Source: Candidatus Gastranaerophilales bacterium (GTDB taxonomy: Bacteria; Cyanobacteriota; Vampirovibrionia; Gastranaerophilales; Gastranaerophilaceae). Taken from it: a stretch of 64,000 bases of DNA. The notes under the pieces were generated by a model. That model was not told the origin of the DNA, did no database searches, and saw nothing but the letters and a program-made list of their open reading frames with translations. Both the position numbers and the translations under genes were made by a program. The stretch covers positions 1,271 to 65,270 of the forward strand of contig CAJOJP010000001.1 of assembly GCA_905234915.1 (NCBI GenBank), read 5' to 3'. Shown one piece after another: positions 694 through 60,820 of the stretch (positions within the stretch are counted from its first letter, which is position 1; each line of letters begins with the position of its first letter).

Positions 694-722
694 TTATGAC
701 AAAAAATTTTTTTTGATATAAT
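694..722 (+). promoter_or_regulatory. candidate sigma70-type promoter with extended -10 (TTATGA-17-TATAAT, TG at 714-715) upstream of the RND operon
   Basis: TGATATAAT at 714-722 and a weak -35 at 694-699, located 41 nt upstream of the adaptor gene start. Confidence 0.35.
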
Positions 723-762
723 CTAAGCATGCCAAAACAGAAAATAAACAGGGGATATAATA

Positions 763-1926: not shown

Positions 1927-1958
1927 TTAAAATAAGTAAATAAAAACGGAAAATAATT

Positions 1959-6726: not shown

Positions 6727-6737
6727 AGAGAGGTCAT

Positions 6738-7445: not shown

Positions 7446-7455
7446 TAAGAAATTT

Positions 7456-8367
7456 ATGTTTAAAAAGATTATTATAAATATAATTATCACTTTAATACTT
7501 ATTTGTTCGGCTGAATTTTTCTGCTTTAATATTGCAAAAAAAGAGAATGAATCATTCAAATTAAAGACAGATAAGCTTGCAGCTAATAACAGCAAGACTT
7601 ATAAAACCAAATATACAATTTTATCTGATTTTAAACCTGTTTTATGGAGAAAATCTTTTATAAAAAATAATTCATTAAAAAAACCAATAATTTGGTTCGG
7701 GTGTTCTTTTGCGGAAGGTGCCGGATTAAAGGATAATGAGTCACCCTGTTATAAAATATCGCAATTAACGGGAAGAAGCTGTATAAATAGGGCAAAAGGC
7801 GCAACAGGAGTGCAGTTTATGTATTATCAACTGTTAAATGAAAATTTTTTTGAAGCAGTGCCTCAGGCAGATTACGTTATTTATACATTTATTTATCACC
7901 ATATTAAAAGATTATTTAATTTTCAAATTAATCCATTGCTTGATATGTTTAATATAAGATACAAAATATCAAATGGTAAATTAGTTGAGATAAAACCGTT
8001 TTTTAAACCGTTTTATTCCTCTTTCATAGTAAAAAGATTTTTAAATAAAATAGAACTCAGTCAATCGGAAGCAGAAGAAAAAGATTTTAAACTTTTTAAT
8101 AAAATAATGGAAGCTTCTTTAAATATTACAAGGCAAAAATATCCACAGGCAAAATTCATTCTTATTGAATTTCCGGATTTATCAGGCAAAGAACTGCCTG
8201 ATTATGAAATTAAAAATCTTGAATCAATGGGAATAAATGTGATTAAAGTTATCGACATTATCTCTGATATTACAGACAAAAAATACTGGCTTGAAGATAA
8301 TATACACCCTAATGAAAAAGCATGGGATATAATTATTCCTGAAATAACAAAAGAATACATCAAATAA
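7456..8367 (+). CDS. membrane-anchored SGNH/GDSL-like hydrolase (tentative)
   Basis: N-terminal TM anchor, block I-like FGCSFAEGAG (Ser in the GDS position), and C-terminal DNIHPNEKAW resembling the SGNH D-x-x-H catalytic block. It starts 10 nt after the preceding stop. Confidence 0.4.
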   Translation: MFKKIIINIIITLILICSAEFFCFNIAKKENESFKLKTDKLAANNSKTYKTKYTILSDFKPVLWRKSFIKNNSLKKPIIWFGCSFAEGAGLKDNESPCYKISQLTGRSCINRAKGATGVQFMYYQLLNENFFEAVPQADYVIYTFIYHHIKRLFNFQINPLLDMFNIRYKISNGKLVEIKPFFKPFYSSFIVKRFLNKIELSQSEAEEKDFKLFNKIMEASLNITRQKYPQAKFILIEFPDLSGKELPDYEIKNLESMGINVIKVIDIISDITDKKYWLEDNIHPNEKAWDIIIPEITKEYIK

Positions 8368-8645: not shown

Positions 8646-10913
8646 ATGACTATGAGCCTAGAAGAAGAATTATTCAATGGAGTTGAAAAAAATACTCCCG
8701 ATTATATTAAAAATAACAAATATATTGATATTGACAATAAAAAAGAATTTACTTTTATATTAAAAAAAGAGCATCTTCTTCCTTATGATGCAGAAAATAA
8801 TCCATTGGGATTAAATCTTAATAACTGGCTGAAAAATTATGAAAAAGAGGCAGCAGTTTCAACAGCCGGTATAAGAGGACCTCAAAACATTTTATATCCC
8901 TATGATGTTCGATTCCCTATCAATATAATGGGAATTATGCTTGCAACTTACGCAAAAGCTCTTGTTGCAAAAGAAAAATATAAAGGGAAAAAAATTATAA
9001 AATTGGTAGGACGAGAGGTTAGATATAATAGTGATAAATTTTTGGATTTAATAGCCAGAGTCCAGGCAGCGCAAGGAATTGAAACTCTTACTGTTTATGA
9101 AAGAAAAACAATGCCGATTTGGCTTGCTTCATTTTTATGTTTTAAACTTGATTTGGCAGGAGGAGAATATATTACATCAAGTCATGGTATAAGTGTTAAA
9201 AACGCCACGAAAGACTTAAATTCCCAGGGCAGCCAGTATCTGCCCGATGAATCAATGGAATTTGTTAATAAAATTAAAGAAATTTTTGATATAGTTCAAA
9301 AAAAAGGAACTTATGAAATAAAAATTGCTAAATCGGATGATGAATTGATTAATGAAAATTTTATGAAATCAATTAATAACGGTATCGATTTATATATAGA
9401 ATATCTTGAAAATGGTGTTGCAAACAAAGAAAATCTTGATTTAATAAAAAGAACAAATAATAAAATTATTATAGAAAATGTTGGCGGAAGTGCATATAAT
9501 ACTTTAAATAAAATCCTTATGAAATTTAAGATACAAAATAAGTTTGTCTGGATGAATATTGAGGAAGATGCATTTTTTCACGGTATAGGAAAATATGATA
9601 CCGACCCGATGGGAAATAAATGTTTTTATGATTATTCCGTAGATGCAACCGTAATTTCAAAGCAAAAAGACGGAAAATATTATTTCCCCGTAATCGATAC
9701 GCTTAATTACAGTGAAAAACTTAAAAATTATCCCGTTGGAACTGTTGTTTTGATTACAGACCCGGATCACGACAGACTCACTGTCTGCCAGATTGAAAGT
9801 TCAGAAAAAATACACAAGCTGGAAAAAATCGGAATAAGCACATCTAAACTTGACAGTAAAAGAGTTTTATGCGTTTATACCGCAAATCAGTCTTTCTTAT
9901 TAATTATGAATTTTTGGAAAGAACAATTGCAAAAATCAGGTAAATGGAATAATTACCCGAGATTTATTGTTAAAACCACTGCAAGTGCAAAAAGCTGGGA
10001 TGAATGGGCAGAATTTAACGGAATAAAAGTTGTAAATGTTCCTGTCGGCTTTAAAGAAATTGCAAATATAATGAAAAAAGTCGAAAATCAAATTATAAAA
10101 AATCCAAATAAAGACGTTATTATTACTGATGTTTTCGGCAATGATATTAATCTCGGCAAAAATCCGCGTATGATTTTCGGCGGAGAAGAATCCGGCGGAA
10201 TGATTATCGGCAGTGAAGAACTTATAAAATCGAAAGCCGGAAGAATTGCCATAGCAATGAGAGAAAAAAGTGCTTCTGAAGCAATTATTATAGCCGCGGC
10301 TTTAGTTTCTAACCTTGAAAAAGATAATAAAACACTATCTGATGCATTAGAAGAAATATTCACGAAAAATAATATTATTGCTAAATATGATATGCGTGAA
10401 GATATTGCTTATTACAATGAATCTGAACCTGATATAGAAAAATTAATGCAGTCAAAAAAAGAAGGTGAAGAAAAAAGAACAAAAAATGATTTATTCTTTT
10501 TAGCTCCTGCGCTTGCTTTTTTTGACAAAAAAATTACTCTTGAGCAAATCAAATCAGTATTTAAATCAATTTTTGAAACTTTAAACTTTGATAATCTTAT
10601 AGATATTAAATTTGTAGGTGACGGTACTTATCTTAAATTTACGGATAAATTTATAGAAATCAGACCTTCAGGTACTGATGCAAAAACAAAAGCATACGGT
10701 TCCGGGGCAAATAAAGAAGATATCTCACAATTCGCCCGTGTTCTTGGAAATTATTCAGGAAATTTAAATGCCTTATATCTTGATTTAATTTCTCAAGATT
10801 ACTACAATAATGCTAAAGAAAAATCCATGTGTGAATATCTGAAATTTACAAATAAAGATTTTGATACAAGAGTTTTTGAAATACCGGATTACGATAAAAC
10901 ACTAAAAATATAA
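8646..10913 (+). CDS. alpha-D-phosphohexomutase superfamily protein, divergent and unusually long
   Basis: All four family loops are recognisable in order: TSSHGIS (phosphoserine loop, normally TASHNP), DPDHDR (metal loop), GGEESGG (sugar loop) and RPSGTDAKTKAY (phosphate loop). Confidence 0.6.
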   Translation: MTMSLEEELFNGVEKNTPDYIKNNKYIDIDNKKEFTFILKKEHLLPYDAENNPLGLNLNNWLKNYEKEAAVSTAGIRGPQNILYPYDVRFPINIMGIMLATYAKALVAKEKYKGKKIIKLVGREVRYNSDKFLDLIARVQAAQGIETLTVYERKTMPIWLASFLCFKLDLAGGEYITSSHGISVKNATKDLNSQGSQYLPDESMEFVNKIKEIFDIVQKKGTYEIKIAKSDDELINENFMKSINNGIDLYIEYLENGVANKENLDLIKRTNNKIIIENVGGSAYNTLNKILMKFKIQNKFVWMNIEEDAFFHGIGKYDTDPMGNKCFYDYSVDATVISKQKDGKYYFPVIDTLNYSEKLKNYPVGTVVLITDPDHDRLTVCQIESSEKIHKLEKIGISTSKLDSKRVLCVYTANQSFLLIMNFWKEQLQKSGKWNNYPRFIVKTTASAKSWDEWAEFNGIKVVNVPVGFKEIANIMKKVENQIIKNPNKDVIITDVFGNDINLGKNPRMIFGGEESGGMIIGSEELIKSKAGRIAIAMREKSASEAIIIAAALVSNLEKDNKTLSDALEEIFTKNNIIAKYDMREDIAYYNESEPDIEKLMQSKKEGEEKRTKNDLFFLAPALAFFDKKITLEQIKSVFKSIFETLNFDNLIDIKFVGDGTYLKFTDKFIEIRPSGTDAKTKAYGSGANKEDISQFARVLGNYSGNLNALYLDLISQDYYNNAKEKSMCEYLKFTNKDFDTRVFEIPDYDKTLKI

Positions 10914-10928
10914 TAAAGGAGAATAAAA

Positions 10929-11171
10929 ATGGCTGATGAAGGCAAAAGACTTGCTACAATAGATAGAAATGCAACAGAACAATTACAAATCAGTTTAAAA
11001 ACATTTAAAAATAAAGAATATCTTGATTTAAGGATATTTTATACAACAGATGAAGGGACAACATGGCTTCCAAGCAAAAAAGGTGTAACTGTTTCTCCCG
11101 ACCATCTTGAAATACTAAAAGATGCAGTAGATGAAGCAATAAAGGAACTTTCAACTCCGGTTGAAGAATAG
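10929..11171 (+). CDS. PC4/YdbC-family (transcriptional coactivator p15-like) ssDNA-binding protein
   Basis: 80 aa with the pattern EQLQISLKTFKNKEYLDLRIFYTTDEGTTWLPSKKGVTVS, which matches the PC4-like fold signature (K..yLDiR.wy....g.w.PtkKGisl). Confidence 0.5.
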   Translation: MADEGKRLATIDRNATEQLQISLKTFKNKEYLDLRIFYTTDEGTTWLPSKKGVTVSPDHLEILKDAVDEAIKELSTPVEE

Positions 11172-11208
11172 TAGAATATGTAAAAATATGAAAGCAGGGA
11201 ATTAATAT

Positions 11209-12225
11209 ATGAAAAAACCGGTATTGGCTGTATTAGGTGCTACAGGGGTTGTTGGCAGAAATATACTTAAAATTTTAGAAGAAAATAATGTTGTATATGA
11301 AGATATTAAATTTTTGGCAAGCAAAAAAAGTGCCGGAAGTTTGATTGAGTTTAAAGGTAAAAAATATACCGTTATAGAAGCAGCACCTGATGTTTTTGAA
11401 GGAATAAATATTGTTTTAGCCTCGGCGGGCGGTTCAACGAGTCTTGCTCTTGCTAAAGAAGCAGTTAAAAGAGGGGCTGTTTATATTGATAATTCAAGTG
11501 CTTTCCGCATGGAAAAAGATGTACCGCTTGTTATTGCAGGTGTTAATGATGAAGATATTAAAACTCATCACGGTATAATTGCAAATCCAAATTGCTCAAC
11601 ATCTCAATTAATGTTGGCTTTAAAGCCTTTGCATGATTTTGCTCAAATAAAAAGAATGATTGTAAGTACTTATCAATCAGTTTCAGGTGCAGGACTTGCC
11701 GCTATTAACGAACTTAGGGAAAATACAATTGCAGTTAACGAAAACAGACCTTTTACAAATGTTAAGTTCAAAAAGCCGATTGCATATAATTGCATTCCTC
11801 AAATCGATGATTTTTGTGATAACGGCTATACAAAAGAAGAAATGAAAGTTACTAACGAAACGAGAAAAATTCTTCATTTGAAGCCTGATACACCGATTTC
11901 TTGTACAGCTGTCAGAGTTCCTGTATTTATAGGTCATTCGGAAGCCGTAACTGTTGAATTTGAAAAAGAATTATCACCGGAAAAGGCTCGTGAATTACTT
12001 GAAAAAGCTTGGGGCGTAAAGGTTATCGATGATATAAAAAATTATGATTATCCTACTGCTGTTATGGCAGCGGGTACAAATCCGGTTTATGTCGGACGAA
12101 TTAGAAAAGATATAGCTTTTGATAATGCAATTTCTTTCTGGTGTGTTGCTGATAACCTTAGAATAGGTGCTGCTTTAAATACGGTAAGAATTGCCGAAAA
12201 AGTTATTGAATTTCAGGTTTTTTAA
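11209..12225 (+). CDS. asd: aspartate-semialdehyde dehydrogenase
   Basis: N-terminal GATGVVG NAD(P) motif, active-site IANPNCSTSQ, and the GHSEAV block. Confidence 0.9.
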   Translation: MKKPVLAVLGATGVVGRNILKILEENNVVYEDIKFLASKKSAGSLIEFKGKKYTVIEAAPDVFEGINIVLASAGGSTSLALAKEAVKRGAVYIDNSSAFRMEKDVPLVIAGVNDEDIKTHHGIIANPNCSTSQLMLALKPLHDFAQIKRMIVSTYQSVSGAGLAAINELRENTIAVNENRPFTNVKFKKPIAYNCIPQIDDFCDNGYTKEEMKVTNETRKILHLKPDTPISCTAVRVPVFIGHSEAVTVEFEKELSPEKARELLEKAWGVKVIDDIKNYDYPTAVMAAGTNPVYVGRIRKDIAFDNAISFWCVADNLRIGAALNTVRIAEKVIEFQVF

Positions 12226-12245: not shown

Positions 12246-13133
12246 ATGCGTTATAATGCAGGCGAAGTGATTACGGCAATGGTAACACCCTTCAATGCTG
12301 ATTTATCTGTTGATTATAAGTCACTGGAAAAACTGGTAGAGCATCTTATAAAAACAGGTTCTGAAGCTATATTAGTTGCCGGAACAACAGGAGAAACTCC
12401 GACTCTTACTCATGAGGAAGAAGCCGAAATATTTAATTTCGTAAAAAAAATCGTAAATGGCAGAGTCAAATTGATTATTGGAGCCGGCTCCAATTGTACG
12501 GAAACTGCCGTACAATCTTCAATAAAAGCTCAAAAAGCAGGTGCAGATGCAATTTTAACCGTAGTTCCATATTATAATAAGCCATCTCAAAAGGGAATGT
12601 ATGAACACTTCAGTGCAATCGCAAAATCAACCGATTTACCGATAATTTTATATAATATTCCCGGGCGCACAGGGGTTAATATGCAGCCTGCAACAATTGC
12701 CAAATTAGCGCGTAATTTTAAAAATATAACTGCAGTAAAGCAAAGCAATGCGGATTTAGATTTAATAAGCGAAATAAAAATGCTTTCGCCTGAAGATTTT
12801 ATGATATATTGCGGTGATGATTCATTAACTCTTCCGATGCTAAGTCTTGGTGCCCAGGGAGTAATCAGCGTTGCTTCACACATTGCAGGCCGCAAAATAA
12901 AAGAAATGATTAAACTTTTTAAATCAGGTCAAATAAATGAAGCACTTGCATTACATTTAAAATTATATCCTATGTTTAAAAAGATATTTATGGCTCCAAA
13001 TCCTGTTCCGATAAAAGCTATTTTGGCAAATGTAGGAATTATAAATGAATTTGTCAGAAAACCTCTTGTAACTCTTGATGAGCAGGAAAAAAACGAATTG
13101 ATGTCTGTAATAAACGAATATAAATTAGTATAA
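12246..13133 (+). CDS. dapA: 4-hydroxy-tetrahydrodipicolinate synthase
   Basis: GTTGE motif, YNIPGRTG motif, Schiff-base lysine context AVKQS, and position adjacent to asd. Confidence 0.9.
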   Translation: MRYNAGEVITAMVTPFNADLSVDYKSLEKLVEHLIKTGSEAILVAGTTGETPTLTHEEEAEIFNFVKKIVNGRVKLIIGAGSNCTETAVQSSIKAQKAGADAILTVVPYYNKPSQKGMYEHFSAIAKSTDLPIILYNIPGRTGVNMQPATIAKLARNFKNITAVKQSNADLDLISEIKMLSPEDFMIYCGDDSLTLPMLSLGAQGVISVASHIAGRKIKEMIKLFKSGQINEALALHLKLYPMFKKIFMAPNPVPIKAILANVGIINEFVRKPLVTLDEQEKNELMSVINEYKLV

Positions 13134-15167
13134 TCATTTTTTATATAGAATTGTATATTTTTTACCTTGATAGTTATTATCAATAACAAATCCGTTTTTT
13201 TGAAAATATTCAAAAGGTATTTCACAATCAACTGTAGTTATTTGTCCGCTTTTTGTTTTAGTGTATATACATGAAGAAATATAATCAAATTTCTTTTGAC
13301 TTCTTTCTTTGTAATTTACTATATTCGTTGAGGAAACAGTATTTTTATTAGTAATTATATAATTATATTTACTTAAATTATAGGCTTCAACATTTTCTAA
13401 AAGCAATTTATCGATTTTATAACCAAAAAGCTTTAATTTTTCAATACAAAAGATTGGAGTTGTTGATTGATTTGCTATAAGTGCAATATTTACAATACCT
13501 TTATTTGCAAAATATCCGTATATATCATTTTCTTCATCTGTTGTAGATGTATTATTAACGATTTTTTGTTTTTTTATGCATTCAATAATGTAGGAAACAG
13601 GTTTTTGATGTGAAAAACCTACAAGATACATAAAAAGAATTAAACATAAAAATATCTTACAAAATTTATGTCTGTTTAGGGGATATGAATAAACAATAAC
13701 AGGCGAAGCAATAACTGCAAAAGTAAGCAGATAACGCATATTATAGCTTGTAAAAACCATTATTCGGGAAAATAATAAAATATTAAAGACAACAGATAAT
13801 GCAAAAAAAGCCATTATTATTGCTTCTTTAGATTTTTTTCTTATTCCTCTTTTAATTGAATATATTAATGAAGGCAGAAAAATTAATAAACCGTTTATTC
13901 CAAGCGCAGAGTGCATCATTCCCATTTTATTGCCAAATTCAAAATGACCGGCAAAATAACTTGAGGTTCCTGCATTAATTGAAGTTCCCAAAAAAGATAA
14001 AACAAGACTCTGCCAGTATTCTATTAATCCGTTAATTTGCATAAACTTTGGGATACCGGACATATCAAAAATCACAAATGTATATTTAACTACATTTGCT
14101 ATATAACCCTTTATTCCATCCGTAAACTGATTTATAGCTAATTGTTCCGGGTTTGAAAAAGGATTTGAAAATTGTATTAAATTTAAAATATAATTATATG
14201 AAGAAAATACAAAGAAATTCAGCAAAAATAATCCGCAAAAAGTAAGTATCCGTTTATAAAATATAGGTTTATCGTATAAATAACTTATAATACAAAGAAT
14301 AATAAATACAGAAGGAATTGCAATAACAGCATTAGTTTTAGTACCAACAGCCAGTGCATAAGCTAATGAAGAAAAATACAGCAATACCATATCATGATTT
14401 TTTGCCGACTTTAAAAATAAATAAATACAAGCAAGAATTAAAGCTCCGACAAATAAATCAGCGCATGGCTTTACCATTTCTATTAAAACAAGGGCAAAAG
14501 ATGAAAATACAATTACAGACCAAATTCGCCTTCTTATTGTAAATTTTAGTTCTTTTAATAGATTGTATATTACATATATAGCTCCGGTATAACCTATAAA
14601 AGAAAAAAAACCTGCTCCCATTTCGCTTTTAGTGAATAATAAAAGCAATGTATAAAGAAATTCCATATTTACGGGCATTATAATCTCTCTTGAATCAGGA
14701 GTTATAAAATGTAAAATACTTCCCTGCTGAATCCAAGCAGTACATCTGGGCAGATAATATGCAAGAGCATCACCAAAATTTACAGGAAATAAAAATATCC
14801 GCATTAGTTGAAATATGAAGAAAAAAACAAAACAAACACACGCAAAAATAAGTACCTTATCCTTTTCTAATACAAACAGAAATCTTTTTAAATCAAGATA
14901 AGGTTTATACAACTTACCGCTTTTAACTAAAAAAGTTATTAGCGAAATAATAAAAAAAACAATATTGGAAATAAAAAAATTGTTTTTAGAGATTGATTTA
15001 AATAAAGATAATATTTCAAACGTTAATACGATTTGAGCAAATGCAATTAATAGAAAACAAATAAAACCGGTTCTTCCTTTTTCCGATATATTGTCTTTTT
15101 CTTTGAAAAAAGCAGACAGCATAAGATATGAAGAAAATAACACTAATAAAATTGAAGAAATAAACAT
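13134..15167 (-). CDS. large polytopic membrane protein, GT-C-type glycosyltransferase-like (ArnT/PMT-like), tentative
   Basis: 677 aa with more than 12 predicted hydrophobic spans and then a soluble C-terminal domain. No specific motif was recognised. Confidence 0.4.
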   Translation of the reverse strand: MFISSILLVLFSSYLMLSAFFKEKDNISEKGRTGFICFLLIAFAQIVLTFEILSLFKSISKNNFFISNIVFFIISLITFLVKSGKLYKPYLDLKRFLFVLEKDKVLIFACVCFVFFFIFQLMRIFLFPVNFGDALAYYLPRCTAWIQQGSILHFITPDSREIIMPVNMEFLYTLLLLFTKSEMGAGFFSFIGYTGAIYVIYNLLKELKFTIRRRIWSVIVFSSFALVLIEMVKPCADLFVGALILACIYLFLKSAKNHDMVLLYFSSLAYALAVGTKTNAVIAIPSVFIILCIISYLYDKPIFYKRILTFCGLFLLNFFVFSSYNYILNLIQFSNPFSNPEQLAINQFTDGIKGYIANVVKYTFVIFDMSGIPKFMQINGLIEYWQSLVLSFLGTSINAGTSSYFAGHFEFGNKMGMMHSALGINGLLIFLPSLIYSIKRGIRKKSKEAIIMAFFALSVVFNILLFSRIMVFTSYNMRYLLTFAVIASPVIVYSYPLNRHKFCKIFLCLILFMYLVGFSHQKPVSYIIECIKKQKIVNNTSTTDEENDIYGYFANKGIVNIALIANQSTTPIFCIEKLKLFGYKIDKLLLENVEAYNLSKYNYIITNKNTVSSTNIVNYKERSQKKFDYISSCIYTKTKSGQITTVDCEIPFEYFQKNGFVIDNNYQGKKYTILYKK

Positions 15168-33452: not shown

Positions 33453-34724
33453 TTAGTATCTAAAGATTTTTCTTCCGTTAGTAAGAGTAATTTCCGTTAT
33501 TCTCATTCCGTTATTTAGTACAAAATTTTTGGTTTGTACTATTTTTGATACATCAGGATTTAAAGTTTCTAAAACTTCTTTTAAAATTGCTTCATGACTT
33601 TCGGATGGTTTTACCGGAGTTTTTTCGGTTTTTATGGATTCATCAACTGCTTTTTCTTCTTTAGCAACTGTTTCTTTGACAGGTTCTTCAACTATTTCTT
33701 TCGGTTTAGAAACAGCTTCTCCTCTTTTGACAGGTTCTTCTATTACTTCTTTTGTTTTAGAAACAGTTTTTGCAGTTTTGACAGGTTCTACGAATATTTC
33801 TTGCATGGCTGATGTTTTGTTTTCAGCAGTTTTCACTGTTTTTGGTGTTTCCTTAATCGATGCTGCAATTTCTGTATTTTCACCGTTAATTTTAGAATAT
33901 TTTCCGGAAGATACTTTTGCACCTATCAGTGACATACTTGCAATTGAAGTACCGTTTCCCATTCCCTGCCAAGCGTTTTCAGCTTCTTTATCTGTTTTTG
34001 CCTTATTAGCATCAACGGCACTCTTTCCAAACTGAAAAGCCCCATAAGCTAAACCTGCTCCTGCTAAAACAGGAGCCGCCAATCCACCTGTTGCATATAT
34101 TAATAGCGCGCTGCCAGCTATTATTCCTGCTCCTTTTATAAAATTTTCGGGAGATTCAAACATGCTCACAGCAGGAGATATCAAACCTTTTCCAAAATTT
34201 ATTACTTTATCTTTCGGAGAAATTATTCCGTCATTTATTGAATAATCAAATTCTTTTTCAGGGTTTTCGTTTTTTTCGATTTTTACGGTTTCCTCACGCT
34301 TAATTGTTTCTTTTTTCTCCGGCTTCTTAGGTTTATGGGCTGCCTCCAGTGCTTCTCTTCTTTTTGCAGCCTCCAATTTACTGTCTTCAATAAATTTTTT
34401 CCCTGTTTCAGCAAGTTTAATTTTTAGTTCATCTGAAACAGGAGGTTCTATGTCGGCAGGTTCAACTGTTATTTCTCCGATTTCAGGAAGTTCAAATTCG
34501 GGCAGTTTAGGAACCGAATATTTTGGTTTTCCAATATCTGAAAGCATTTCATCTGTTTCAGGTAAACTTATAATCCCATCAAGACAACTATTTGAACTTT
34601 CCTCTGAATCATATTGCTCAAATTTTGCATATTTATTCCCGTCTTTATTAGTATTAACTTCGCTGTTATTTTTTTTAGCAACACTAAATCCACCAAAATT
34701 GCAATCCATTTTTAAAAATTCCAC
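33453..34724 (-). CDS. hypothetical protein with a glycine-zipper-like hydrophobic core and 17-aa EPVK repeats
   Basis: Long ORF. GAGIIAGSALLIYATGGLAAPVLAGAGLAYGAFQFG segment and a repeated (E)EPVK...VSK.KE unit. The track start is GTG, with an ATG at 34709 as an alternative. Confidence 0.5.
   Translation of the reverse strand: MEFLKMDCNFGGFSVAKKNNSEVNTNKDGNKYAKFEQYDSEESSNSCLDGIISLPETDEMLSDIGKPKYSVPKLPEFELPEIGEITVEPADIEPPVSDELKIKLAETGKKFIEDSKLEAAKRREALEAAHKPKKPEKKETIKREETVKIEKNENPEKEFDYSINDGIISPKDKVINFGKGLISPAVSMFESPENFIKGAGIIAGSALLIYATGGLAAPVLAGAGLAYGAFQFGKSAVDANKAKTDKEAENAWQGMGNGTSIASMSLIGAKVSSGKYSKINGENTEIAASIKETPKTVKTAENKTSAMQEIFVEPVKTAKTVSKTKEVIEEPVKRGEAVSKPKEIVEEPVKETVAKEEKAVDESIKTEKTPVKPSESHEAILKEVLETLNPDVSKIVQTKNFVLNNGMRITEITLTNGRKIFRY
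33675..33810 (-). repeat. about 2.6 copies of a 51-bp tandem coding repeat
   Basis: TTTGACAGGTTCT... recurs at 33675, 33726 and 33777. Confidence 0.8.
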
Positions 34725-39929: not shown

Positions 39930-42761
39930 TTATCTTTTTGATAACATTTCAAGAACATTTGTTGAGTTTACTTTTTTATTTGAATTTAAGTTATCCTGCT
40001 GTTCTTTAGGCAATCTGTCTTTTAACGGTTTTTTACCCGTTAATAATCTCATAAATTCAAAATATTTTCCGGTAAATCCCGTTCTGTTTTCGTTTTCTCT
40101 ATCCATTTCATTTAATTCGTCAATAGTTTTTCTTCCGATAGGCATACCGATAGATGAACGCATAAGAACTTCCGTTGTAATGGTATTTGGAACGGCAACT
40201 GACGCCATACCTGTTAATGAACTGTTGTACGTACTTCTAAATGTTGCATTAAACCAATTAATAAATAATGCCTGATAGAATAATCCGCTCAATCTTTGAA
40301 TAATACGCTCATTTGCTTTTTCTTTTGCTTCTTCGCTATCTTCTCCGTTTGTTTTTATCATTACCATATTATAATTATCGGCTACCAAAAATGCCGAGGT
40401 TACCGTTGATGATGCAAGTTTTGACATTAATGCCAAATCGGTATTTTTATTACTTGATTGAGTAATTCCGTTAAAAGATTTTCCGACCGAGTCATTTATA
40501 TAATCAGTAAGTTTTTGTTTTTCAACTTCGGCTGCTTTAGTTAATTTAGCGATTTCCGCTTTGCTTTTACCTGCTTTTACTGCATCTTGGAGTGCTTTTT
40601 CCGCTTTTCTGTAGGGTAGTGTTTTCTTCTCCAGCTGTTCCATCGCATTAGCAAATACATCCTGGCTGAGTTTTCTTGTTTTAACGTCTTCTTCGCCGAA
40701 AATTTCCGTTATGACTCTATGTACACCCTGTTCAAATTTAGAAAGTTCAGCTTTTCCTAATGCCGCTTCAGCTGCCTTCATTTCAACAGGCTTAACTATA
40801 AGGTTTATCCCTGATTTTGCAAATTTAAAAGGCAATCTTGCAGCTGAATATATAAACTTAAACGGTTCTGTTATTATATCAACGAAGGGTCTTATTTTTG
40901 TATCGATTTTTATTGTTTCTTTTTTTGCATTATTGTTTATTTCTTCCGTAACGGTTTGAGTCAATTTTTTTATTTGTTCCTCATTTAAGTTAACTTTTTT
41001 ATTCTTTATAATTTCCATAGCTTTTTTAGCTGCCTTAGCAGAATTATTTTCGGCAATATCCGCTTCTGACTGCTTTATAGCTGTTTTTAGTGCTTCTTCA
41101 ATTATTTTAGCTTCATTACCGGTTAAAGAATTATTAAGATTTTTTGCTTGTTCAAGTGTCTTTTCAATAACTTTTTGTCTGCCTGACGAATTTAATGATG
41201 ACTTAAACAATTTAATCATGCCGTTTTCTGCCATAGCGGAATATTTGCCTTTTATAAAATCATGACCTTCCGCTACTTTTTCTCCGCCTGCCTGTTTTAA
41301 GCTGTTTATCACGCTGTTATATGTTTCTTCTGTTATTTCAAAATCTTTTTTTGCTAATCTATTGTATATGTTTTTCTTTAGATATTTTCCGGCATCGCTT
41401 ACAGTTGTGATTAATGCCGAATTTTTAGTTAATGAACTGTTTTTTAAAAAATTTAATCCGAAGAAAGTACCTGTCAAAATAATTACACCCTGTTTGAAAG
41501 TACTAAAGTTCATTAAGGCTTTCTTTTGCTCTTTCTTCTTATCTTTCCCACCTGCTGAACTGAAAGAAGCAATTGAAGCAGGACTTGATAACTTATTAAA
41601 TCCTTTAAATACGCTTGTTTCAGGTTCCAAATTCAATAAATTTGTTGTATTTACAGCTTTTGTGGATTTCTTGTCAGTTTGAGGATTTGACAAAACAGTA
41701 TCTTGATTATTATTTGCATTTTTTGACGCAAGTTTTTGATTGTATTCCTGCGCCGTATCTTTTGAAAGGAAGAATACGGGTTTGCCTATTTTGTGCCTTG
41801 AAAAAATTTCAGAAACAAATACTGTAGCAGCTGAAGTTACAGGAGCAAACCACTGAATTGTATTAACCTGCTTTGTAAAAGCCCCAAAGGTCAAAAGTTG
41901 AATATATGCCGTTGTACAAATTCTTATAATTTCCTGTTTTGTTCTTTCATCAGCTTCTTTTTCAGAATCTTCCTTTTTATCTCCGCATAAAACAGAAAGA
42001 TTATATGCATCATTTGCAAGAAAAGCTACCGGAATTGCACCTGTAATAAGTCTGTTTAAGGGTCTTTCGTATGCTGTATTAAAATTTCCCGTATGTTTAT
42101 CAAAAAATTTATTTCCGACTTTATATAAATTTTCTTTTATATTGTCATTTGCTTCTTGTATTAATTTAGCTTTATCAGCATGTTTTTCGGGATTAGCAAG
42201 AATTTTTAATAATTCAGCCTCCTCCATATTTTTTTCTTTAGCAAAATTTTTAATCGTCTGCTGAGTTTTTTCAAACATGCCTTTCAGCATATCTGTTTTT
42301 GAATCCATTTCATTTAATTTTCTGGGAATTCTAAAAATTGGTTTTTTGTATAAACTCTCAGCCGTATTTTTTAAAAAAGGAATTTTTTGTGCTTGTTTTA
42401 ATAATGCGCTTGCACCGTATAAAGGCAGGGTTATAAACGGAAATACAATATTTTCAACTAATGAGCGTCCGACTTTTTTATCTTTAATCGAACTAATGGA
42501 AAGAGCTCCGTTTTCTATAGTAAATCTGGAGCTCTTTCTTAAAATATCCGGTTCATTTTCTCTCGTTAATTTGTGTAATTTTTCCCCCATTCTCTCGCCT
42601 ATACTGCCATAATGGTTTGCAAACACTTTCATTATCTGCTCGTTAGGTCCTTTAAAAACACCTTTAAAAGAAGGTCTATAGGAGGATTTTTGTTGTAAAA
42701 TACCATTTTGGCTTAATTTTGTTAACGATATATTACTTTTATCGGGGATAGTTGTTGTCAT
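39930..42761 (-). CDS. large hypothetical protein with an internal duplication and an N-terminal PSFKGV motif
   Basis: 943-aa ORF with a GAGGA RBS. Two homologous hydrophobic modules sit at residues ~240-335 and ~789-877, separated by a Lys/Glu-rich helical region. Confidence 0.5.
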   Translation of the reverse strand: MTTTIPDKSNISLTKLSQNGILQQKSSYRPSFKGVFKGPNEQIMKVFANHYGSIGERMGEKLHKLTRENEPDILRKSSRFTIENGALSISSIKDKKVGRSLVENIVFPFITLPLYGASALLKQAQKIPFLKNTAESLYKKPIFRIPRKLNEMDSKTDMLKGMFEKTQQTIKNFAKEKNMEEAELLKILANPEKHADKAKLIQEANDNIKENLYKVGNKFFDKHTGNFNTAYERPLNRLITGAIPVAFLANDAYNLSVLCGDKKEDSEKEADERTKQEIIRICTTAYIQLLTFGAFTKQVNTIQWFAPVTSAATVFVSEIFSRHKIGKPVFFLSKDTAQEYNQKLASKNANNNQDTVLSNPQTDKKSTKAVNTTNLLNLEPETSVFKGFNKLSSPASIASFSSAGGKDKKKEQKKALMNFSTFKQGVIILTGTFFGLNFLKNSSLTKNSALITTVSDAGKYLKKNIYNRLAKKDFEITEETYNSVINSLKQAGGEKVAEGHDFIKGKYSAMAENGMIKLFKSSLNSSGRQKVIEKTLEQAKNLNNSLTGNEAKIIEEALKTAIKQSEADIAENNSAKAAKKAMEIIKNKKVNLNEEQIKKLTQTVTEEINNNAKKETIKIDTKIRPFVDIITEPFKFIYSAARLPFKFAKSGINLIVKPVEMKAAEAALGKAELSKFEQGVHRVITEIFGEEDVKTRKLSQDVFANAMEQLEKKTLPYRKAEKALQDAVKAGKSKAEIAKLTKAAEVEKQKLTDYINDSVGKSFNGITQSSNKNTDLALMSKLASSTVTSAFLVADNYNMVMIKTNGEDSEEAKEKANERIIQRLSGLFYQALFINWFNATFRSTYNSSLTGMASVAVPNTITTEVLMRSSIGMPIGRKTIDELNEMDRENENRTGFTGKYFEFMRLLTGKKPLKDRLPKEQQDNLNSNKKVNSTNVLEMLSKR

Positions 42762-53760: not shown

Positions 53761-54453
53761 ATGAAATTAAAGGAATTAATAAAAGCAGAATTTGATGGTT
53801 TTAGGAAATATGAAAAAATATTTTTTACGCTTATTATTATTATTATTTGTATAATTTCTTTAATTACAAAAGATAATCTGATATCTTTAGTTTCTGCTCT
53901 CTGTGGTATAAGTTACACAATACTGGCGGGAAAGGGAAAAATTTCCTGTTATTTTATAGGAATTATAGGAACTTTATGTTATTCTTATCTTGCTTTTAAA
54001 AACGGATTTTACGGTAATCTTGTATTGTATGCTTTTTATTATTTTCCTATGGAAATTATAGGAATTTTTGCCTGGAAAAATCACCTGAAAAAAGATGTAA
54101 GGGAAATAAAAAAAACAAAACTCTCATCAAAAGAGCTTTTTATTTACTTTTGTTCAGCTTTTGTTTTATCCTGTCTTTTAACTTATATACTAAATATAAC
54201 AGGAGATAAAAGTCCTTTTTGTGATTCATTAACAGTTGTTTTATCGGTTATAGGCTTAATTTTGACCGTAAAAAGGTGTATAGAACAGTGGTATATCTGG
54301 TTTATTGTTAATTTAATATCATTAATAATGTGGTTTAATGCTTTTTTATCCGGTTCAAACTGCCTTGCAACGGTTTTAATGTGGTTTGTTTATTGGATTT
54401 TATCAATTTATTTTCTTTATATCTGGAAAAAAGAAGTTAATAATACATTCTAA
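53761..54453 (+). CDS. pnuC: nicotinamide riboside transporter PnuC
   Basis: 230 aa with 7-8 TM spans and the pattern GISYTILAGKGKISCYFIGIIGTLCYSYLAF...W typical of PnuC. Confidence 0.75.
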   Translation: MKLKELIKAEFDGFRKYEKIFFTLIIIIICIISLITKDNLISLVSALCGISYTILAGKGKISCYFIGIIGTLCYSYLAFKNGFYGNLVLYAFYYFPMEIIGIFAWKNHLKKDVREIKKTKLSSKELFIYFCSAFVLSCLLTYILNITGDKSPFCDSLTVVLSVIGLILTVKRCIEQWYIWFIVNLISLIMWFNAFLSGSNCLATVLMWFVYWILSIYFLYIWKKEVNNTF

Positions 54454-54456
54454 CAT

Positions 54457-57400
54457 TTATGCAGCCTGTGATTTTTGTTCATTCGTTAAATTTTTTATGT
54501 AAACAAAGTATTTATTACCGTTTTTGTCTGTTATTGTTTTTTCTTCAAAAACTTTTTTGCAGGCAGGTATTTCAAGCTTTGTAATTAAAATAACCCCGTC
54601 TTTCAATTGCTCAATTTTATTTATCGATTGCTGCAATTTTTTTATTTCACAAGGATAAAGAATTCTGTTAAAATTACAAACATTTACTATAAAAGTTTTT
54701 TTACCCTGTGTTACGGAAAAAATATTTTGGTTATTTATATTTAAGTTTGACTTCCATTCATAACCTTCTTGTTTTAATAATTCAATTACTGGTTCTAATC
54801 TTTCGGGGATATCGGTATATTCTTTTAATTTATTATCGGAAACTGTATAAACTTTATCTAATGTTTTTAATTCTTTACAATTATCTCTGCTTTCACGAAA
54901 TCCGTTTTTGGAAATTAATATTAATCCGCTATTTTCATCTTCGCTATTTTTTATTTGCTTCATAAAGTTTATTGCCTTTACTATCTCTTTACTGTCCATA
55001 CAATCAGAACCACCGCTATAATTTACAATAAAAGTTTTAGCAGCTTTTGTTACAGAAAAAATATTTTGACCGGAATGTGAACTTAGGTTTTCTTTCCAGT
55101 CATAACCGTTTTGTTTTAATATTTCAATAATAGGTTTTAATCTTTCAGGAATGCCTGTATATTCCTGCAATTTGTTATCGGCAACAGTATAAACTTTATC
55201 TAATGTTTTTAATTTTTTATATGTATCTCTGCTTTCACAAAATCCGCTTTTGGCAATTAATATAAATCCATCACTTGTATCATCTGCGGCATTTAGTAAA
55301 TTATTTATTACTTTATCTATCTCGGTATTTGATATAGCACTATTAGTATCCCGATAATTTACAATAAAAGTTTTATTATCTTTAGTTACGGAAAAAATAT
55401 TTGGTGTTGTTGTACCTAAATTTGACTTAAAGTCATAACCCTCTTGTTTTAATAATTCAATTACAGGTTCTAATTTTTTCGGAATACCTGTATATTCTTG
55501 TAATTTATTATCAGCAACGGTATAAACTTTATCAAACATTTTTAAATTTTTATATGTATTTTTACTTTCCGTAAAACCATTTGGAACAATTAATATTAAT
55601 TTGTTATTTTCATTTTTTACTGCCTGTGTTATACTTTTTCTTATATCTTCTATTTCATTATTTGCAATACTTCGTTCACTATTGCTATAATAACAAATAA
55701 AAGTTTCATTATCTTTTTTAACTAAAAAAATATTTTTGCTTCGATTTGTGCTTAAGCATTCTAAAATTTTATAACCTTCCTGTTCTAATAATTTTTGAAA
55801 ATCCGTATTTATTCTTTTCGTTATGGAAATATCAAATTTTTGTAATTTATTATCATTAACAGTATAGATTTTATCCAGAATTTTTAATTTATTATATGTA
55901 TCTCTGCTGTCACTAAAGCCGCTTTTTGAAATTAATATCAAGCCGTCATTTTTATCGTTTTTTACATTTAGCATACTGTTTATTGCTTTTTCTATATCAC
56001 GACTCATCATAGGAGAACAATCACAATTTTTGTAATAAACAATATAATTTTTATCATCTTTTGATACTTTAAATATATTTTGTTGAGAATTTACATTTAA
56101 GTTTGCTTCCCACTTATAATCCTCCTGTTTTAATAAACTTACTACAAATTGTAATCTTTCGGGTATTCCGTCATATTCTTTTAATTTGTTATCAGCAATA
56201 GTATAAATTTTGTCTAATGTTTTTAATTTTTTATATGTATTTCCATTTTCACTAAAGCCGTTTTGGGAAATTAATATTAATCCGTCATTTTCATTTTTTT
56301 TCGCGTTTTGCAAAGAGTCTAATATTTTGTCAATTTCGGTAATTGGTAATGCGGAAGAATCTTTTCTATAATTAACAATAAAAGTTTTATTATCTTTTAC
56401 TGCCGAGAAAATATTTTGACTGAGTACACTTAAGTTTTCTCCCCATTTATAACCCTCTTGCATCAGTAAGTTCATTATCATTTTAAATTTTTCAGGTATA
56501 TCGGAATTGTATTCCTGCAATTTATTATCGGCAACAGTATATATTTTATCTAATGTTTTTAAATTTTTATATGTATCTTTGGATTCACGAAATCCGTTTG
56601 CAGAAATTAATATTAATCCGTCAAATTCATCATTAGATGCATTCAGCATGTTATTTACAGCTCTTTCTATTTCGGTATTCTGTAAAGGCTTAACATTATA
56701 AATATAGTTAACAATAAAAGTTTTACCGTCTTTTGTTACCGAAAAAATATTTTGTTTGCACTCACCAAATTTTTGTTCAAATTTATAACCTTCTTGTTTT
56801 AATAATTCAAAACACTCGGGCGGATTAAATGTATATTTAATAAAATCGCTTATATAGCCTTCTTTGACAATATACGGATATTTAGGTTTAAATTCATCAT
56901 TAAGTATCTGTATTATTTCATCAATAGTCATTTCACTTTCATTTATCATTTCTTTTATTCTGTTTTTTTGTGCAAGCAAATCTTTATGACATTTACCTCT
57001 TTGACCCGTTTCCTCAATAAAAGGTTTTAAAACTTCATCATTTATTTCAACTTTATGTTCTTTTGCATAATCAATTAAATTATCAAGATTCATAATCTCA
57101 TATTTAAAACTCTGATTTTTCGCATAATCAATACAGCTGTCATATACCCCGCTTGAAGCTATTATAAGACAATTAATATCTTTAATATTCAATTTCTCAA
57201 TATCTTTTTTTTGAAAACTATCTTTTTCCCTGCAATCAGTCAATTCCTGCATTATAGTTCGGGTTACAAAATTACCTGATGTAAAATGTTTACACTGAAC
57301 AAGCGTTCTTGTTCCGTCATTCTCATCTAAAATAATATCAACTCCGTTATCTCCGCTTGGCGGTGTAACAGTAACATTTTTAAATATTTTTTCTCCTTTT

Positions 57401-57693
57401 TCATTTAAGGCATTTTCAAATATGTAACCTGCAAATTTTTCAAAACAATAGCCGTCTATTTTAAATATTTTTTCTCTTAATTCTGCATTTTCACTCTTTA
57501 ATCTCGTTGTTTTATTATCAGCACCGAAGGAAACAACTGATTTATTCATTGCAGTTATTGCATTACTGTAATTTCTATAATCTGTATCGGTTATTTGTTT
57601 TATCTGCTTTCCTTTAATTTCTTCTTTTATCGGTAAATTATTTCCATATCCGTAATTAAAATCAGCTAAATTTTTTACAGAGAAATTTATCAT
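54457..57693 (-). CDS. Mrr-type (PD-(D/E)xK) restriction endonuclease domain protein with seven C-terminal tandem degenerate nuclease-fold-like repeats
   Basis: Residues ~75-205 read GYCFEKFAGYIFENAL...SGDNGVDIILDENDGTRTLVQCKHF...LIIASSGVYDSCIDYAK...LDNL, which is the Mrr_cat pattern. Residues ~291-1078 are 7 repeats of ~112 aa. Confidence 0.7.
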   Translation of the reverse strand: MINFSVKNLADFNYGYGNNLPIKEEIKGKQIKQITDTDYRNYSNAITAMNKSVVSFGADNKTTRLKSENAELREKIFKIDGYCFEKFAGYIFENALNEKGEKIFKNVTVTPPSGDNGVDIILDENDGTRTLVQCKHFTSGNFVTRTIMQELTDCREKDSFQKKDIEKLNIKDINCLIIASSGVYDSCIDYAKNQSFKYEIMNLDNLIDYAKEHKVEINDEVLKPFIEETGQRGKCHKDLLAQKNRIKEMINESEMTIDEIIQILNDEFKPKYPYIVKEGYISDFIKYTFNPPECFELLKQEGYKFEQKFGECKQNIFSVTKDGKTFIVNYIYNVKPLQNTEIERAVNNMLNASNDEFDGLILISANGFRESKDTYKNLKTLDKIYTVADNKLQEYNSDIPEKFKMIMNLLMQEGYKWGENLSVLSQNIFSAVKDNKTFIVNYRKDSSALPITEIDKILDSLQNAKKNENDGLILISQNGFSENGNTYKKLKTLDKIYTIADNKLKEYDGIPERLQFVVSLLKQEDYKWEANLNVNSQQNIFKVSKDDKNYIVYYKNCDCSPMMSRDIEKAINSMLNVKNDKNDGLILISKSGFSDSRDTYNKLKILDKIYTVNDNKLQKFDISITKRINTDFQKLLEQEGYKILECLSTNRSKNIFLVKKDNETFICYYSNSERSIANNEIEDIRKSITQAVKNENNKLILIVPNGFTESKNTYKNLKMFDKVYTVADNKLQEYTGIPKKLEPVIELLKQEGYDFKSNLGTTTPNIFSVTKDNKTFIVNYRDTNSAISNTEIDKVINNLLNAADDTSDGFILIAKSGFCESRDTYKKLKTLDKVYTVADNKLQEYTGIPERLKPIIEILKQNGYDWKENLSSHSGQNIFSVTKAAKTFIVNYSGGSDCMDSKEIVKAINFMKQIKNSEDENSGLILISKNGFRESRDNCKELKTLDKVYTVSDNKLKEYTDIPERLEPVIELLKQEGYEWKSNLNINNQNIFSVTQGKKTFIVNVCNFNRILYPCEIKKLQQSINKIEQLKDGVILITKLEIPACKKVFEEKTITDKNGNKYFVYIKNLTNEQKSQAA
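54460..56823 (-). repeat. seven tandem in-frame coding repeats, period 333-342 bp
   Basis: The landmark GTATAAAC/GTATAGAT... recurs at 54845, 55187, 55520, 55862, 56201 and 56537. There are 28 identical nt at 54845 and 55187. Confidence 0.85.
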
Positions 57694-59392: not shown

Positions 59393-60820
59393 CTATGCTG
59401 CTGTTGAAGAATATTTTGTTTCATTTTTTGTTTGCTGTTTTTCTTCGGAAAGAATTTTTTGGAAATCATCAACATATTCTCTCCAGGGGATTACAACCAC
59501 ATCATCAGCATTTAATGCTTCTTTGGAAATACCGGCATGATGAATTAACGGTAAAAGTTTTTCTTCGCTTATTTTAATTACATCATCTACTCCGTCATCG
59601 GTATCATTGCATAAAAAGCTTCCTTTTCCGTCTTTATCGGTTTCGTAACCCACAATTGTAATTTCATGCCCGCCGTTAACACGTTTATCTGCATCCAGAT
59701 GTGTATAGCCTATAATTACATTCTGTCCCAATTTCAGCGACTTTAAAATATGCTGTTTTGTCTCTTCGCGTGTATTATTATTATATTCCCTGAGAATGCC
59801 GTTCTCATCCAAATTTTGATATACAACCGAATACTTTGGAGTTTCAAATATAACCTGTTCGGCAAAATTCTTTTCAAAATCAGTTAATCCTGTTTTATCC
59901 GGATTAAATTTTCCTGTTCTTTCATCGGTAATAGAATTATATGTATTTTGAGAAGCAAAATTTAAAATTGCGGATTGTATAAGTACATCAATACAAGAAC
60001 GCTCACCCGGGTCTTTATAGGAAGTTTGAACTCTTGCTCGTACTATTGCATTTCTGTCAGGCTGTAATTTTACGGTAACTTCTTTTCCGTTTTTAGACAA
60101 CTTATTTATTGTATTAAATTCTCTTAATTTCCAAATACCTTCAAGAAAATTCTCGGAAAAATCAGATACTTTAATATGTTTATCTACACTATAATTTTCA
60201 CCTGTTAAATCTGCCGCAAATCTTGCAAATTCAGCGGGTTTTCTATCTGCCAGATTAAATTCCATGCTCGCTGCTACACAAGAAGAAGAAACAACATTTT
60301 TAGCAAATTCCGGTACTTTTTCTCCTGTTTCTTTTGTTATTTCATCAGCTACACTATCCGGTATATCACCGAATTTTTGCGTAATTGCGTAAGGGTTATC
60401 AAGAGCTTTAATTACTTCAGTTAAAATAATTTTTTCGTTTAAACCTTGAATACGAGGTTTAGATACTATTTTATACAGATTTTGCAGTACGGTTGAATTA
60501 TCATTGGAATCATGATTTTCCAGAATACCTTTTTTTTGTAAACTTTCCAGCTGCTTAACCGTCTTTTTATCAAGTTTTGATTTTATAATATCAAATTGGA
60601 GTTTTGAATCAGCAACAGGTTGAACTTCCTGTCTGCCTAAATTCCAAAATGCCGTAAAAGAAGGATGATATGCCTTCAAATTTTCGGCATTCACACTTTT
60701 TAAATGTTCACTATCCGGCATACTAACCGGCTGATTTGATATATTACTTTCAGCTAACCTGTTATCTGCCGAAATGTAATAATTATTATTTATATTACTT
60801 ACTTTTGAAATATTTTGCAT
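59393..60820 (-). CDS. hypothetical protein with a papain-like (C39-like) cysteine peptidase signature
   Basis: Candidate nucleophile SSSCVAASMEF and candidate His/Asp block GGHEITIVGYETDKDGKGSFLCNDTDDG. The N-terminus is Asn/Ser-rich with no signal peptide and contains HPSFTAF. Confidence 0.4.
   Translation of the reverse strand: MQNISKVSNINNNYYISADNRLAESNISNQPVSMPDSEHLKSVNAENLKAYHPSFTAFWNLGRQEVQPVADSKLQFDIIKSKLDKKTVKQLESLQKKGILENHDSNDNSTVLQNLYKIVSKPRIQGLNEKIILTEVIKALDNPYAITQKFGDIPDSVADEITKETGEKVPEFAKNVVSSSCVAASMEFNLADRKPAEFARFAADLTGENYSVDKHIKVSDFSENFLEGIWKLREFNTINKLSKNGKEVTVKLQPDRNAIVRARVQTSYKDPGERSCIDVLIQSAILNFASQNTYNSITDERTGKFNPDKTGLTDFEKNFAEQVIFETPKYSVVYQNLDENGILREYNNNTREETKQHILKSLKLGQNVIIGYTHLDADKRVNGGHEITIVGYETDKDGKGSFLCNDTDDGVDDVIKISEEKLLPLIHHAGISKEALNADDVVVIPWREYVDDFQKILSEEKQQTKNETKYSSTAA

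Follow-up and report, generated by a model that had tools for sequence, protein, structure and literature searches.

The stretch of DNA analysed here (hereafter the window, i.e., the whole 64,000 nucleotides taken from contig CAJOJP010000001.1 of a Candidatus Gastranaerophilales bacterium) carries on its minus strand a gene (54457..57693) for a protein of 1078 amino acids (aa) which, taken as a whole, is a solitary nuclease of the Mrr family with a novel repeat-array accessory region, unusual in design though not fundamentally new. The open reading frame (ORF) is complete with its stop codon in the ORF listing, and the same product is found on four public contigs. A first-pass annotation of this DNA had proposed seven tandem modules within the frame, and this was borne out: an N-proximal catalytic head is followed, from residue 286 to the C-terminus, by seven modules of 111-118 aa each. 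Our reading of the function, which is tentative and falls somewhat short of an even chance, is that of a solitary, lineage-restricted Mrr-family endonuclease whose array of dead modules would engage DNA for a type IV-like attack, with an array length that evolves. Four full-length members of the family are known, all of them metagenomic, namely the window protein, the homologs P0002 (locus L003) and P0003 (locus L004), and the protein L002.

The head (aa 78-208; 57070..57462, minus strand like all features of this gene) was recognised by the Pfam profile Mrr_cat (PF04471) with an E-value of 5.2e-14 and a score of 52.8 bits (gathering cutoff 21), and the homologs score between 48 and 82 bits with the same profile. 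Its catalytic segment (aa 113-136, SGDNGVDIIL...TLVQCKH; 57286..57357) holds D115, D119, Q133 and K135, all of which are invariant in the four full-length homologs. In an alignment with the Card1 nuclease, which among PDB sequences was the best match (E=0.018), the D...QxK site falls in register on its D...ExK core. The N-terminal Mrr_cat core with an intact SGDNGVDIIL...LVQCKH signature, as it had been read from the letters alone, is confirmed by the Pfam score and the conserved D...QxK residues, and the sequence makes it most likely that the head works as an Mrr-type nuclease of the PD-(D/E)xK class.

The head is preceded by an N-terminal extension (aa 1-65; 57499..57693), delimited by alignment of the full-length homologs and without Pfam match; neither an Mrr_N winged helix nor any other Pfam family was found N-terminal to the head at E<=1, and NCBIfam added nothing for the whole protein or for the modules. 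The extension follows the consensus MxNFxVN...KQITDxDYxNYSxAIxAxNKxxxSFG, which is kept in the four full-length homologs and in the fragment P0005, and the N-terminal region is 45-65% identical between the window protein and its homologs. When run against the ORFs of the window, of L002 and of L003, together with three N-termini from L004, the profile of the extension matched the family only (next best E=0.16). In Escherichia coli Mrr the Mrr_N winged helix precedes a catalytic domain that is C-terminal, whereas the window protein has no Mrr_N, carries the family-specific extension of 65 aa instead and has its catalytic domain close to the N-terminus; the seven-module array of dead nuclease folds at the C-terminus likewise sets it apart from Escherichia coli Mrr. 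Since Mrr_N is missing, the domain order is reversed and an array has been added, the protein is not a canonical Mrr. It does share with the type IV enzymes of the Mrr_cat family the D...QxK head, the solitary gene and the absence of a methyltransferase partner, and by analogy such a solitary Mrr-type nuclease without methyltransferase would fit type IV logic.

Between head and array lies an acidic linker without family match (aa 209-285; 56839..57069), which has an isoelectric point (pI) of 4.8 over aa 216-285. The array itself consists of R1 (aa 286-397; 56503..56838), R2 (aa 398-508; 56170..56502), R3 (aa 509-623; 55825..56169), R4 (aa 624-735; 55489..55824), R5 (aa 736-847; 55153..55488), R6 (aa 848-960; 54814..55152) and the terminal module R7 (aa 961-1078; 54460..54813), with borders set in the module alignment by anchoring on the recurring LLKQEGY, NIF and DNKL motifs. 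Protein identity between pairs of R1-R6 is 41-61%. The last module had been called the most divergent, and this is seen in the identity matrix, the neighbour-joining (NJ) tree and the alignment: R7 is only 28-42% identical to the others, and it ends in a C-terminal tail of its own, EEKTITDKNGNKYFVYIK. At the DNA level, Tandem Repeats Finder (TRF) reported a period of 342 bp (5.7 copies, score 1047), and start-to-start spacings of the repeats range from 333 to 345 bp, in keeping with the period given before. A 52-nt repeat family is present in 7/7 copies, and the 28 identical nucleotides at 54845 and 55187 are indeed an exact match, the longest between repeats. The high nucleotide identity between repeats that had been asserted was not found; it is moderate instead, at 60-80%.

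By sequence the modules are orphans. A profile built from 16 modules (those of the window protein, P0002 and P0003; seven, five and four, respectively) gave nothing meaningful in a PDB sequence-profile search, other Pfam families yielded no convincing match to a module, and PADLOC and PHROG yielded none. The Mrr_cat profile, run as had been suggested on the head and on single repeats, matched the head (5.2e-14) and no repeat at E<=10. An AlphaFold2 model of R5 alone, computed from the 16-module alignment, reached a predicted local distance difference test (pLDDT) of 92.1 and a predicted template modelling score (pTM) of 0.86. It shows the topology a-b-b-b-a-b-a-b-b, i.e., helix, three strands, helix, strand, helix and beta-hairpin, which in the model is the restriction-endonuclease-like alpha-beta-beta-beta-alpha-beta core with a C-terminal addition. 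Foldseek comparison of this model with the PDB returned AF1548 (1y88; probability 0.99, template modelling (TM) score TMq 0.58, root mean square deviation (rmsd) 4.1 Å over 100 columns), XisH (2okf and 2inb; probability 0.97-0.98) and AF2093 (2ph7), also with high probability. In the BFVD, phage proteins annotated as 'restriction endonuclease' came out on top (probability 0.92-1.00, TMq 0.55-0.63), together with a CroV Mrr-domain protein and several RPB5 N-domains, and a di-module model added NucS/EndoMS, tRNA-splicing endonuclease and MspJI. According to Steczkiewicz et al. (PMC3424549), 1y88 belongs with Mrr_cat, and the PD-(D/E)XK superfamily includes XisH and RPB5-N. The top Foldseek match of the di-module, the central domain of yeast ACC (E=1.7e-5), was discounted with a TM-score of 0.29 and an rmsd of 14.6 Å.

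The modules are thus not members of Mrr_cat by sequence and have the Mrr_cat fold in predicted structures, where they resemble AF1548. The earlier claim that they share an Mrr-like fold stands in so far as the model is confident and PD-(D/E)xK proteins are its top high-probability matches in two structure libraries; it does not extend to the sequence, as the Mrr_cat profile remains unmatched. The link of the modules to Mrr is weaker than had been claimed; it is made by the fold of the models, by a single homolog that bridges the two and by weak signals in profile-profile comparisons.

The residues needed for catalysis have been lost from the modules. At the acidic position, which is equivalent to D119 by secondary structure (start of beta2), we find N or T in 16/16 modules. 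Where the head has Q133, the 13 internal modules show N or Y and the three terminal modules N, T or S. The counterpart of K135 is R, I, K, S or C among the seven modules of the window protein, and S or C in the modules of P0002 and P0003. The replacement of the acidic and QxK positions seen at first reading therefore holds (N/T at the acid, N/Y/T/S at the glutamine, variable residues at the lysine), and since the catalytic acid and the QxK residues are replaced, the modules are expected to be inactive. Alignment and model together support the view that they are catalytically dead, highly diverged domains of the Mrr/PD-(D/E)xK fold.

How the modules follow each other was predicted from a model of the R5-R6 pair based on 13 consecutive module pairs (pLDDT 92.8, pTM 0.81), in which the first helix of a module begins only about five residues after the last strand of the module before it. 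These short junctions and the pTM argue for a defined inter-module geometry, and the array is accordingly predicted to form a rod or superhelix of defined geometry rather than beads on a string. A Foldseek search with the di-module found no solved structure matching the tandem arrangement.

A bridge between modules and Mrr_cat is offered by L002, a protein of 895 aa (705-3392, plus strand, contig CAJONH010000022.1) from a rumen Candidatus Gastranaerophilales metagenome-assembled genome (MAG) and the only relative among 185,579 GTDB species genomes. Its best tblastn segment has 44% identity over query aa 1-227, i.e., over N-terminal extension and Mrr head, and with the window protein it also shares a homologous C-terminal module. 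What differs is the region after the head: where the window protein has its seven-module array, L002 has 11 tandem units of about 48 aa of the HTH_23/resolvase-type helix-turn-helix (HTH; E=4e-57), followed by the single C-terminal module. This module is recognised by the hidden Markov model (HMM) of the modules with 31.6 bits (E=8e-12 in a one-protein test), and on its own it matches Pfam Mrr_cat with a borderline E-value of 1.4e-3 (19.1 bits, cutoff 21) over profile positions 2-91 of 115, so that in sequence terms it forms a borderline bridge from the module profile to Mrr_cat. A 17-module HMM scored the head of L002 with 8.3 bits (E=5.5e-4 over four targets) and paired KTFIVYY with KTLVQCK and LILISKNGF with IMIASNGV, and hhalign, for which a head-only alignment was used, aligned modules and heads colinearly across the domain (P about 0.005-0.009, probability 2-8%). 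All of these weak module-head profile alignments share one register. The architecture of L002 suggests that it was an already degenerate C-terminal module that became amplified. Of the statement that the repeats are copies of the head's own fold, the shared fold is therefore upheld as a prediction, whereas an origin as duplicates of the present head is not demonstrated. The by-eye idea that the linker (aa 216-285) might be a relic of the HTH units was rejected, as an HMM of five L002 HTH units had no match there. About 90 bp upstream of the L002 gene lies a gene of 73 aa for an XRE-type HTH protein (392-613; HTH_3, E=7e-9), reminiscent of a controller or antitoxin gene.

The family is extremely small. 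In a database of 5.8 billion proteins only two other full-length members were found, P0002 (852 aa, five modules, L003 3594-6152) and P0003 (742 aa, four modules, locus L004), and the copy number of modules does vary across homologs as had been anticipated, with seven, five and four. When 1.84 billion representative proteins were scanned exhaustively with HMMER and the module profile, only the cluster of the window protein itself and a 77-aa fragment were recovered, and a word-index search with the head profile added a single fragment of 166 aa. The module profile found nothing in the GTDB genomes, and module and head profiles found nothing in JGI metagenome contigs and IMG/VR. A 'faint' annotation of P0002 as PF27226 (AF_1845) was not recovered in our Pfam scan at E<=10.

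In the NJ tree of the modules the terminal modules of the window protein, P0002 and P0003 form one clade, which indicates that these three are orthologous, whereas the internal modules group largely by lineage, as is expected from concerted evolution or from independent expansions. The window modules are separated by pairwise synonymous divergences (dS) of 0.46-1.9, hence the array is old in this genome. The ratio of nonsynonymous to synonymous divergence (dN/dS) is 0.32-0.75 in 20/21 module pairs and 1.06 for R3-R4. The window array is old and maintained by selection, not the product of a recent expansion. In a sliding window the C-terminal hairpin LDKVYTVADNKLQEY is under strong constraint, with a ratio of nonsynonymous to synonymous differences (pN/pS) of 0.16-0.25, and the beta1-beta2, beta3-alpha2 and alpha2-beta4 loops of the window modules are near-neutral (pN/pS about 1). 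This pattern in the codons shows purifying selection on the module scaffold, with modules that would be functional and not decaying.

A younger history is visible in P0003, where the adjacent modules R2 and R3 have 90% protein identity. Read by eye from the alignment, the DNA flanks of the two modules differ at about four positions in roughly 270 nt, and the ~60 nt in the middle, coding for the beta3-alpha2 loop, at about 17, mostly nonsynonymous; the terminal module has its first ~120 nt in common with both. From this mosaic of modules R2-R4 in the DNA alignment (L004 9201-10226) we conclude that recent unequal crossing-over or gene conversion has taken place, with breakpoints inside modules, and that selection possibly keeps the loops different. 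The recent expansion or gene conversion put forward for the window array in the first-pass annotation is therefore contradicted in the window genome by the values of dS and found instead in a homolog.

As to mechanism, we propose that the dead-module array would be a rod which binds DNA multivalently, or measures it, and so positions the one active head, and that it would stand in for the winged helix with which canonical Mrr binds DNA at its N-terminal end. The likely role would be to attack foreign or modified DNA in a type IV-like manner that needs no methyltransferase, and unequal crossing-over together with gene conversion may have tuned the array length to seven, five and four modules. 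The strongest argument for an array that binds DNA is L002, where 11 HTH units occupy the position of the modules. The extreme rarity of the gene, its non-conserved location and its variable architecture fit an accessory, conflict-related gene.

Inactive copies of a nuclease fold beside an active one are known from XPF-ERCC1, from the C-terminal domain of Sau3AI and from two-unit tRNA-splicing endonucleases, and of these ERCC1 and the Sau3AI domain are dead nuclease folds serving as DNA sensors or partners. The window protein has this principle in common with RecB/RecC, in which a degenerate PD-(D/E)xK domain is kept beside an active one to bind DNA or a partner, and RecC provides the precedent of an inactive nuclease fold (PMC3424549). 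In systems of the RecB/RecC and XPF-ERCC1 type, however, there is one inactive copy, often on a separate subunit, whereas the window protein has seven in tandem on one chain and, unlike in those systems, the number of inactive copies varies between homologs. Another parallel is offered by the END nucleases, which are solitary and contain an inactive EndoIII domain proposed as DNA sensor (PMC12191111). Like the window protein they lack a methyltransferase and place a dead DNA-enzyme domain beside a nuclease, but their sensor is a single EndoIII fold and their nuclease is of another family, and no homology is implied. The first-pass annotation had stated that no known defence protein has such a layout; in agreement with this, the libraries and the literature searched yielded no equivalent, meaning a protein already described in which inactivated nuclease folds follow each other in tandem.

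Several observations weigh against this reading and have to be set beside it. Not one of the 16 modules is matched by Mrr_cat at E<=10 in Pfam, and the Foldseek E-values of the PD-(D/E)xK matches lie between 4e-3 and 1e-1, with none <=1e-3 for a single module and with TM-scores of only 0.5-0.63. The modules have pI values of 5.4-8.9 and a net charge of roughly zero, and as they are not basic, DNA binding is not obvious from composition. In the window genome the neighbours are housekeeping genes and not a defence island, and the defence models of PADLOC-DB v2 gave zero families at E<=1. Finally, with only four full-length members the comparative inference is thin. The restriction or defence role suggested earlier is for these reasons (no PADLOC match, housekeeping neighbours in the window genome) one that can only be inferred.

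A possible, though rather unlikely, alternative is that the modules are protein-protein units, either cis pseudo-dimer partners or an oligomerisation scaffold for the head, with the length of the array setting the geometry of the assembly. To cut both strands, an enzyme of the PD-(D/E)xK class normally requires two catalytic domains. Partners with an inactive nuclease fold are well established, known generally from XPF-ERCC1 and documented for RecC (PMC3424549), and the near-neutral charge of the modules, the strongest selection on a C-terminal hairpin that sits at the module-module junction, the predicted rigid packing of the di-module and the retention of exactly one head and one module in L002 would all suit such units. 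What lies between head and module in that same protein, however, is a series of 11 DNA-binding HTH units, which speaks for DNA engagement there, and the totals of nuclease-fold domains including the head (eight, six and five) are not consistently even.

A bolder form of DNA engagement, which we consider improbable, would make the array an evolvable modular DNA reader resembling transcription activator-like effectors (TALEs), in which module number and loops set the target or the cleavage distance. Each dead module would then contact DNA via variable loops, notably the beta3-alpha2 loop at the face of the former active site, while gene conversion would keep the scaffolds uniform and the loops would stay different. 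The analogy is conceptual only: TALE arrays likewise have a variable number of near-identical tandem units, and the homogenised scaffolds around a short divergent loop in P0003 can be likened to them. A TALE unit is a helical hairpin of 33-35 aa that reads one base. The units of the window protein are alpha/beta domains of 112 aa as opposed to short helical ones, and their reading of DNA is putative.

Equally doubtful is a housekeeping or chromosomal role, for instance in nucleoid organisation, repair or recombination, of a DNA-associated protein with a nuclease at one end. It would agree with the context of pnuC, hup, spoIID, murJ, pth and truB, with the lack of a PADLOC match and with the wide use of PD-(D/E)xK domains in repair and recombination (PMC3424549). 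Yet a chromosomal function is hard to reconcile with a single relative in 185,579 species genomes and none in the JGI metagenome and IMG/VR collections, with a location that is not conserved and in one homolog is a mobile, toxin-rich island, and with the variation of both copy number and array type, all of which are typical of an accessory or conflict gene rather than of a core function.

There is a similarly small chance that the modules are alpha/beta domains of other descent, whose likeness to the nuclease fold arose by convergence and for which 'dead nuclease copies' would be a misnomer, as might be suspected from the missing Pfam, PDB-sequence and PHROG matches, from Foldseek E-values of only 4e-3 to 4e-2 and from an hhalign probability against the head of 2-8%. 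Against convergence stands the recurrence of PD-(D/E)xK families in high-probability matches from two independent libraries and with two models, as well as the L002 module, which ties the module profile (31.6 bits) to Mrr_cat (E=1.4e-3), and the single register of all head-profile alignments.

Very improbable is an exported DNase effector or toxin in which the extension would be a targeting signal that other orphan proteins of these genomes also carry and the array would aid delivery or binding to the target cell. The extension is conserved in four homologs, and a short motif, [SN]F[GKT][AGKR], occurs within the first 70 aa of four window proteins, among them three orphans; four of the seven occurrences of the motif in the window are N-terminal. 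The orphan neighbours of the homologs moreover show Asn-rich N-termini and, by eye, toxin-like motifs. On the other hand, the extension profile matches the family alone (next best E=0.16), the motif was defined post hoc and its enrichment is weak, there is neither signal peptide nor transmembrane segment nor a linked secretion system, and in no locus does a co-directional immunity-type gene follow the nuclease. It is the family-only profile and the lack of an immunity-like gene that lead us to rate this explanation so low. An assembly artefact or a decaying pseudogene can for practical purposes be set aside: in short-read metagenomes, tandem repeats are easily misassembled, but the identical 1078-aa product is present on four contigs (the longest of 103 kb, one of them seen in two samples), which together with a repeat DNA identity of only 60-80% and a longest exact match of 28 nt makes an artefact unlikely, the homologs share the design, and the frame is open over 3.2 kb with dN/dS <1 in 20/21 module pairs.

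If the solitary Mrr-family nuclease with its DNA-engaging array is taken as the working view, what is new in it, as far as the libraries and literature searched go, is the predicted rigid, seven-fold tandem array, dead nuclease folds having been known as single partners (RecC, ERCC1), and part of the novelty is that this array is exchangeable with an HTH array in the sister protein L002. Should the array bind DNA, it would represent a new repeat scaffold for DNA recognition or distance measuring on a simple nuclease, which would be of interest for the evolution of restriction enzymes and possibly for protein engineering. The modules also exemplify an orphan domain that sequence profiles do not classify and that structure prediction and one bridging homolog can place. 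The impact is limited by a family of four full-length members, all from metagenomes, and by a function that is inferred.

The gene stands alone between pnuC and hup as had been noted, both neighbours being identified by Pfam (NMN_transporter, E=1e-40, and Bac_DNA_binding, E=4e-33); spoIID, murJ, pth and truB are found on one side and hup on the other. The gene pnuC is convergent, and its final base is only three bases away from the stop codon of the nuclease gene (54453-54457), which leaves no intergenic space for separate terminators. A scan for promoters and terminators was uninformative in this AT-rich DNA (35 promoter-like sites versus 31.7 expected). The G+C content of the gene is 24-27% (54000-57500) compared to 30-36% at 51-53.5 kb and 59.5-62.5 kb, and would fit either a foreign origin or a composition rich in Asn, Lys and Ile.

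The surroundings of the homologs are of another kind. The P0003 locus (L004 1-18229) encodes a phage-type integrase, a Y1 transposase, a Zeta toxin, a ParE toxin and Eco57I-like fragments, in addition to a gene of >1260 aa with N6_Mtase, Eco57I and Methylase_S domains (type IIG-like restriction-modification), and is a mobile, conflict-type island. P0002 has orphan genes around it and a fragment of a DDE transposase at its side. The loci have neither a partner gene nor a downstream gene in common, as the genes beside P0002 and P0003 are without relatives in the window, and no methyltransferase consistently accompanies the gene. In both L003 and L004 a gene of 423 aa is found on the strand opposite to the nuclease.

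A few minor observations concern the orphan genes of the three loci. Orphans with Asn/Ser-rich N-termini bear a short motif, x[SN]F[GKT][AGKR], located 9-55 residues into the protein, which could be a lineage-specific targeting signal or reflect compositional bias. In the window these are 39930-42761, 59393-60820 and 33453-34724 (all on the minus strand); orphans with such N-termini also lie in L003 (973-2085, 2104-3600 and, on the minus strand, 6247-7518) and in L004 (5755-6849, 12801-14297 and, on the minus strand, 10282-11553), and none of them belongs to a Pfam family. The 475-aa orphan at 59393-60820 (minus strand) has a weak similarity to Peptidase_C39_2 (E=0.0039, aa 324-407) and by eye a papain-like 'GGHEITIVGY', and may be a cysteine protease. 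In L004, the ORF of 364 aa at 5755-6849 shows terminal motifs that by eye resemble those of ADP-ribosyltransferases (YRQV...SYAS...CEMLFPRNAEF), and a HEITH zinc-protease motif is likewise seen by eye in the ORF of 498 aa at 12801-14297.

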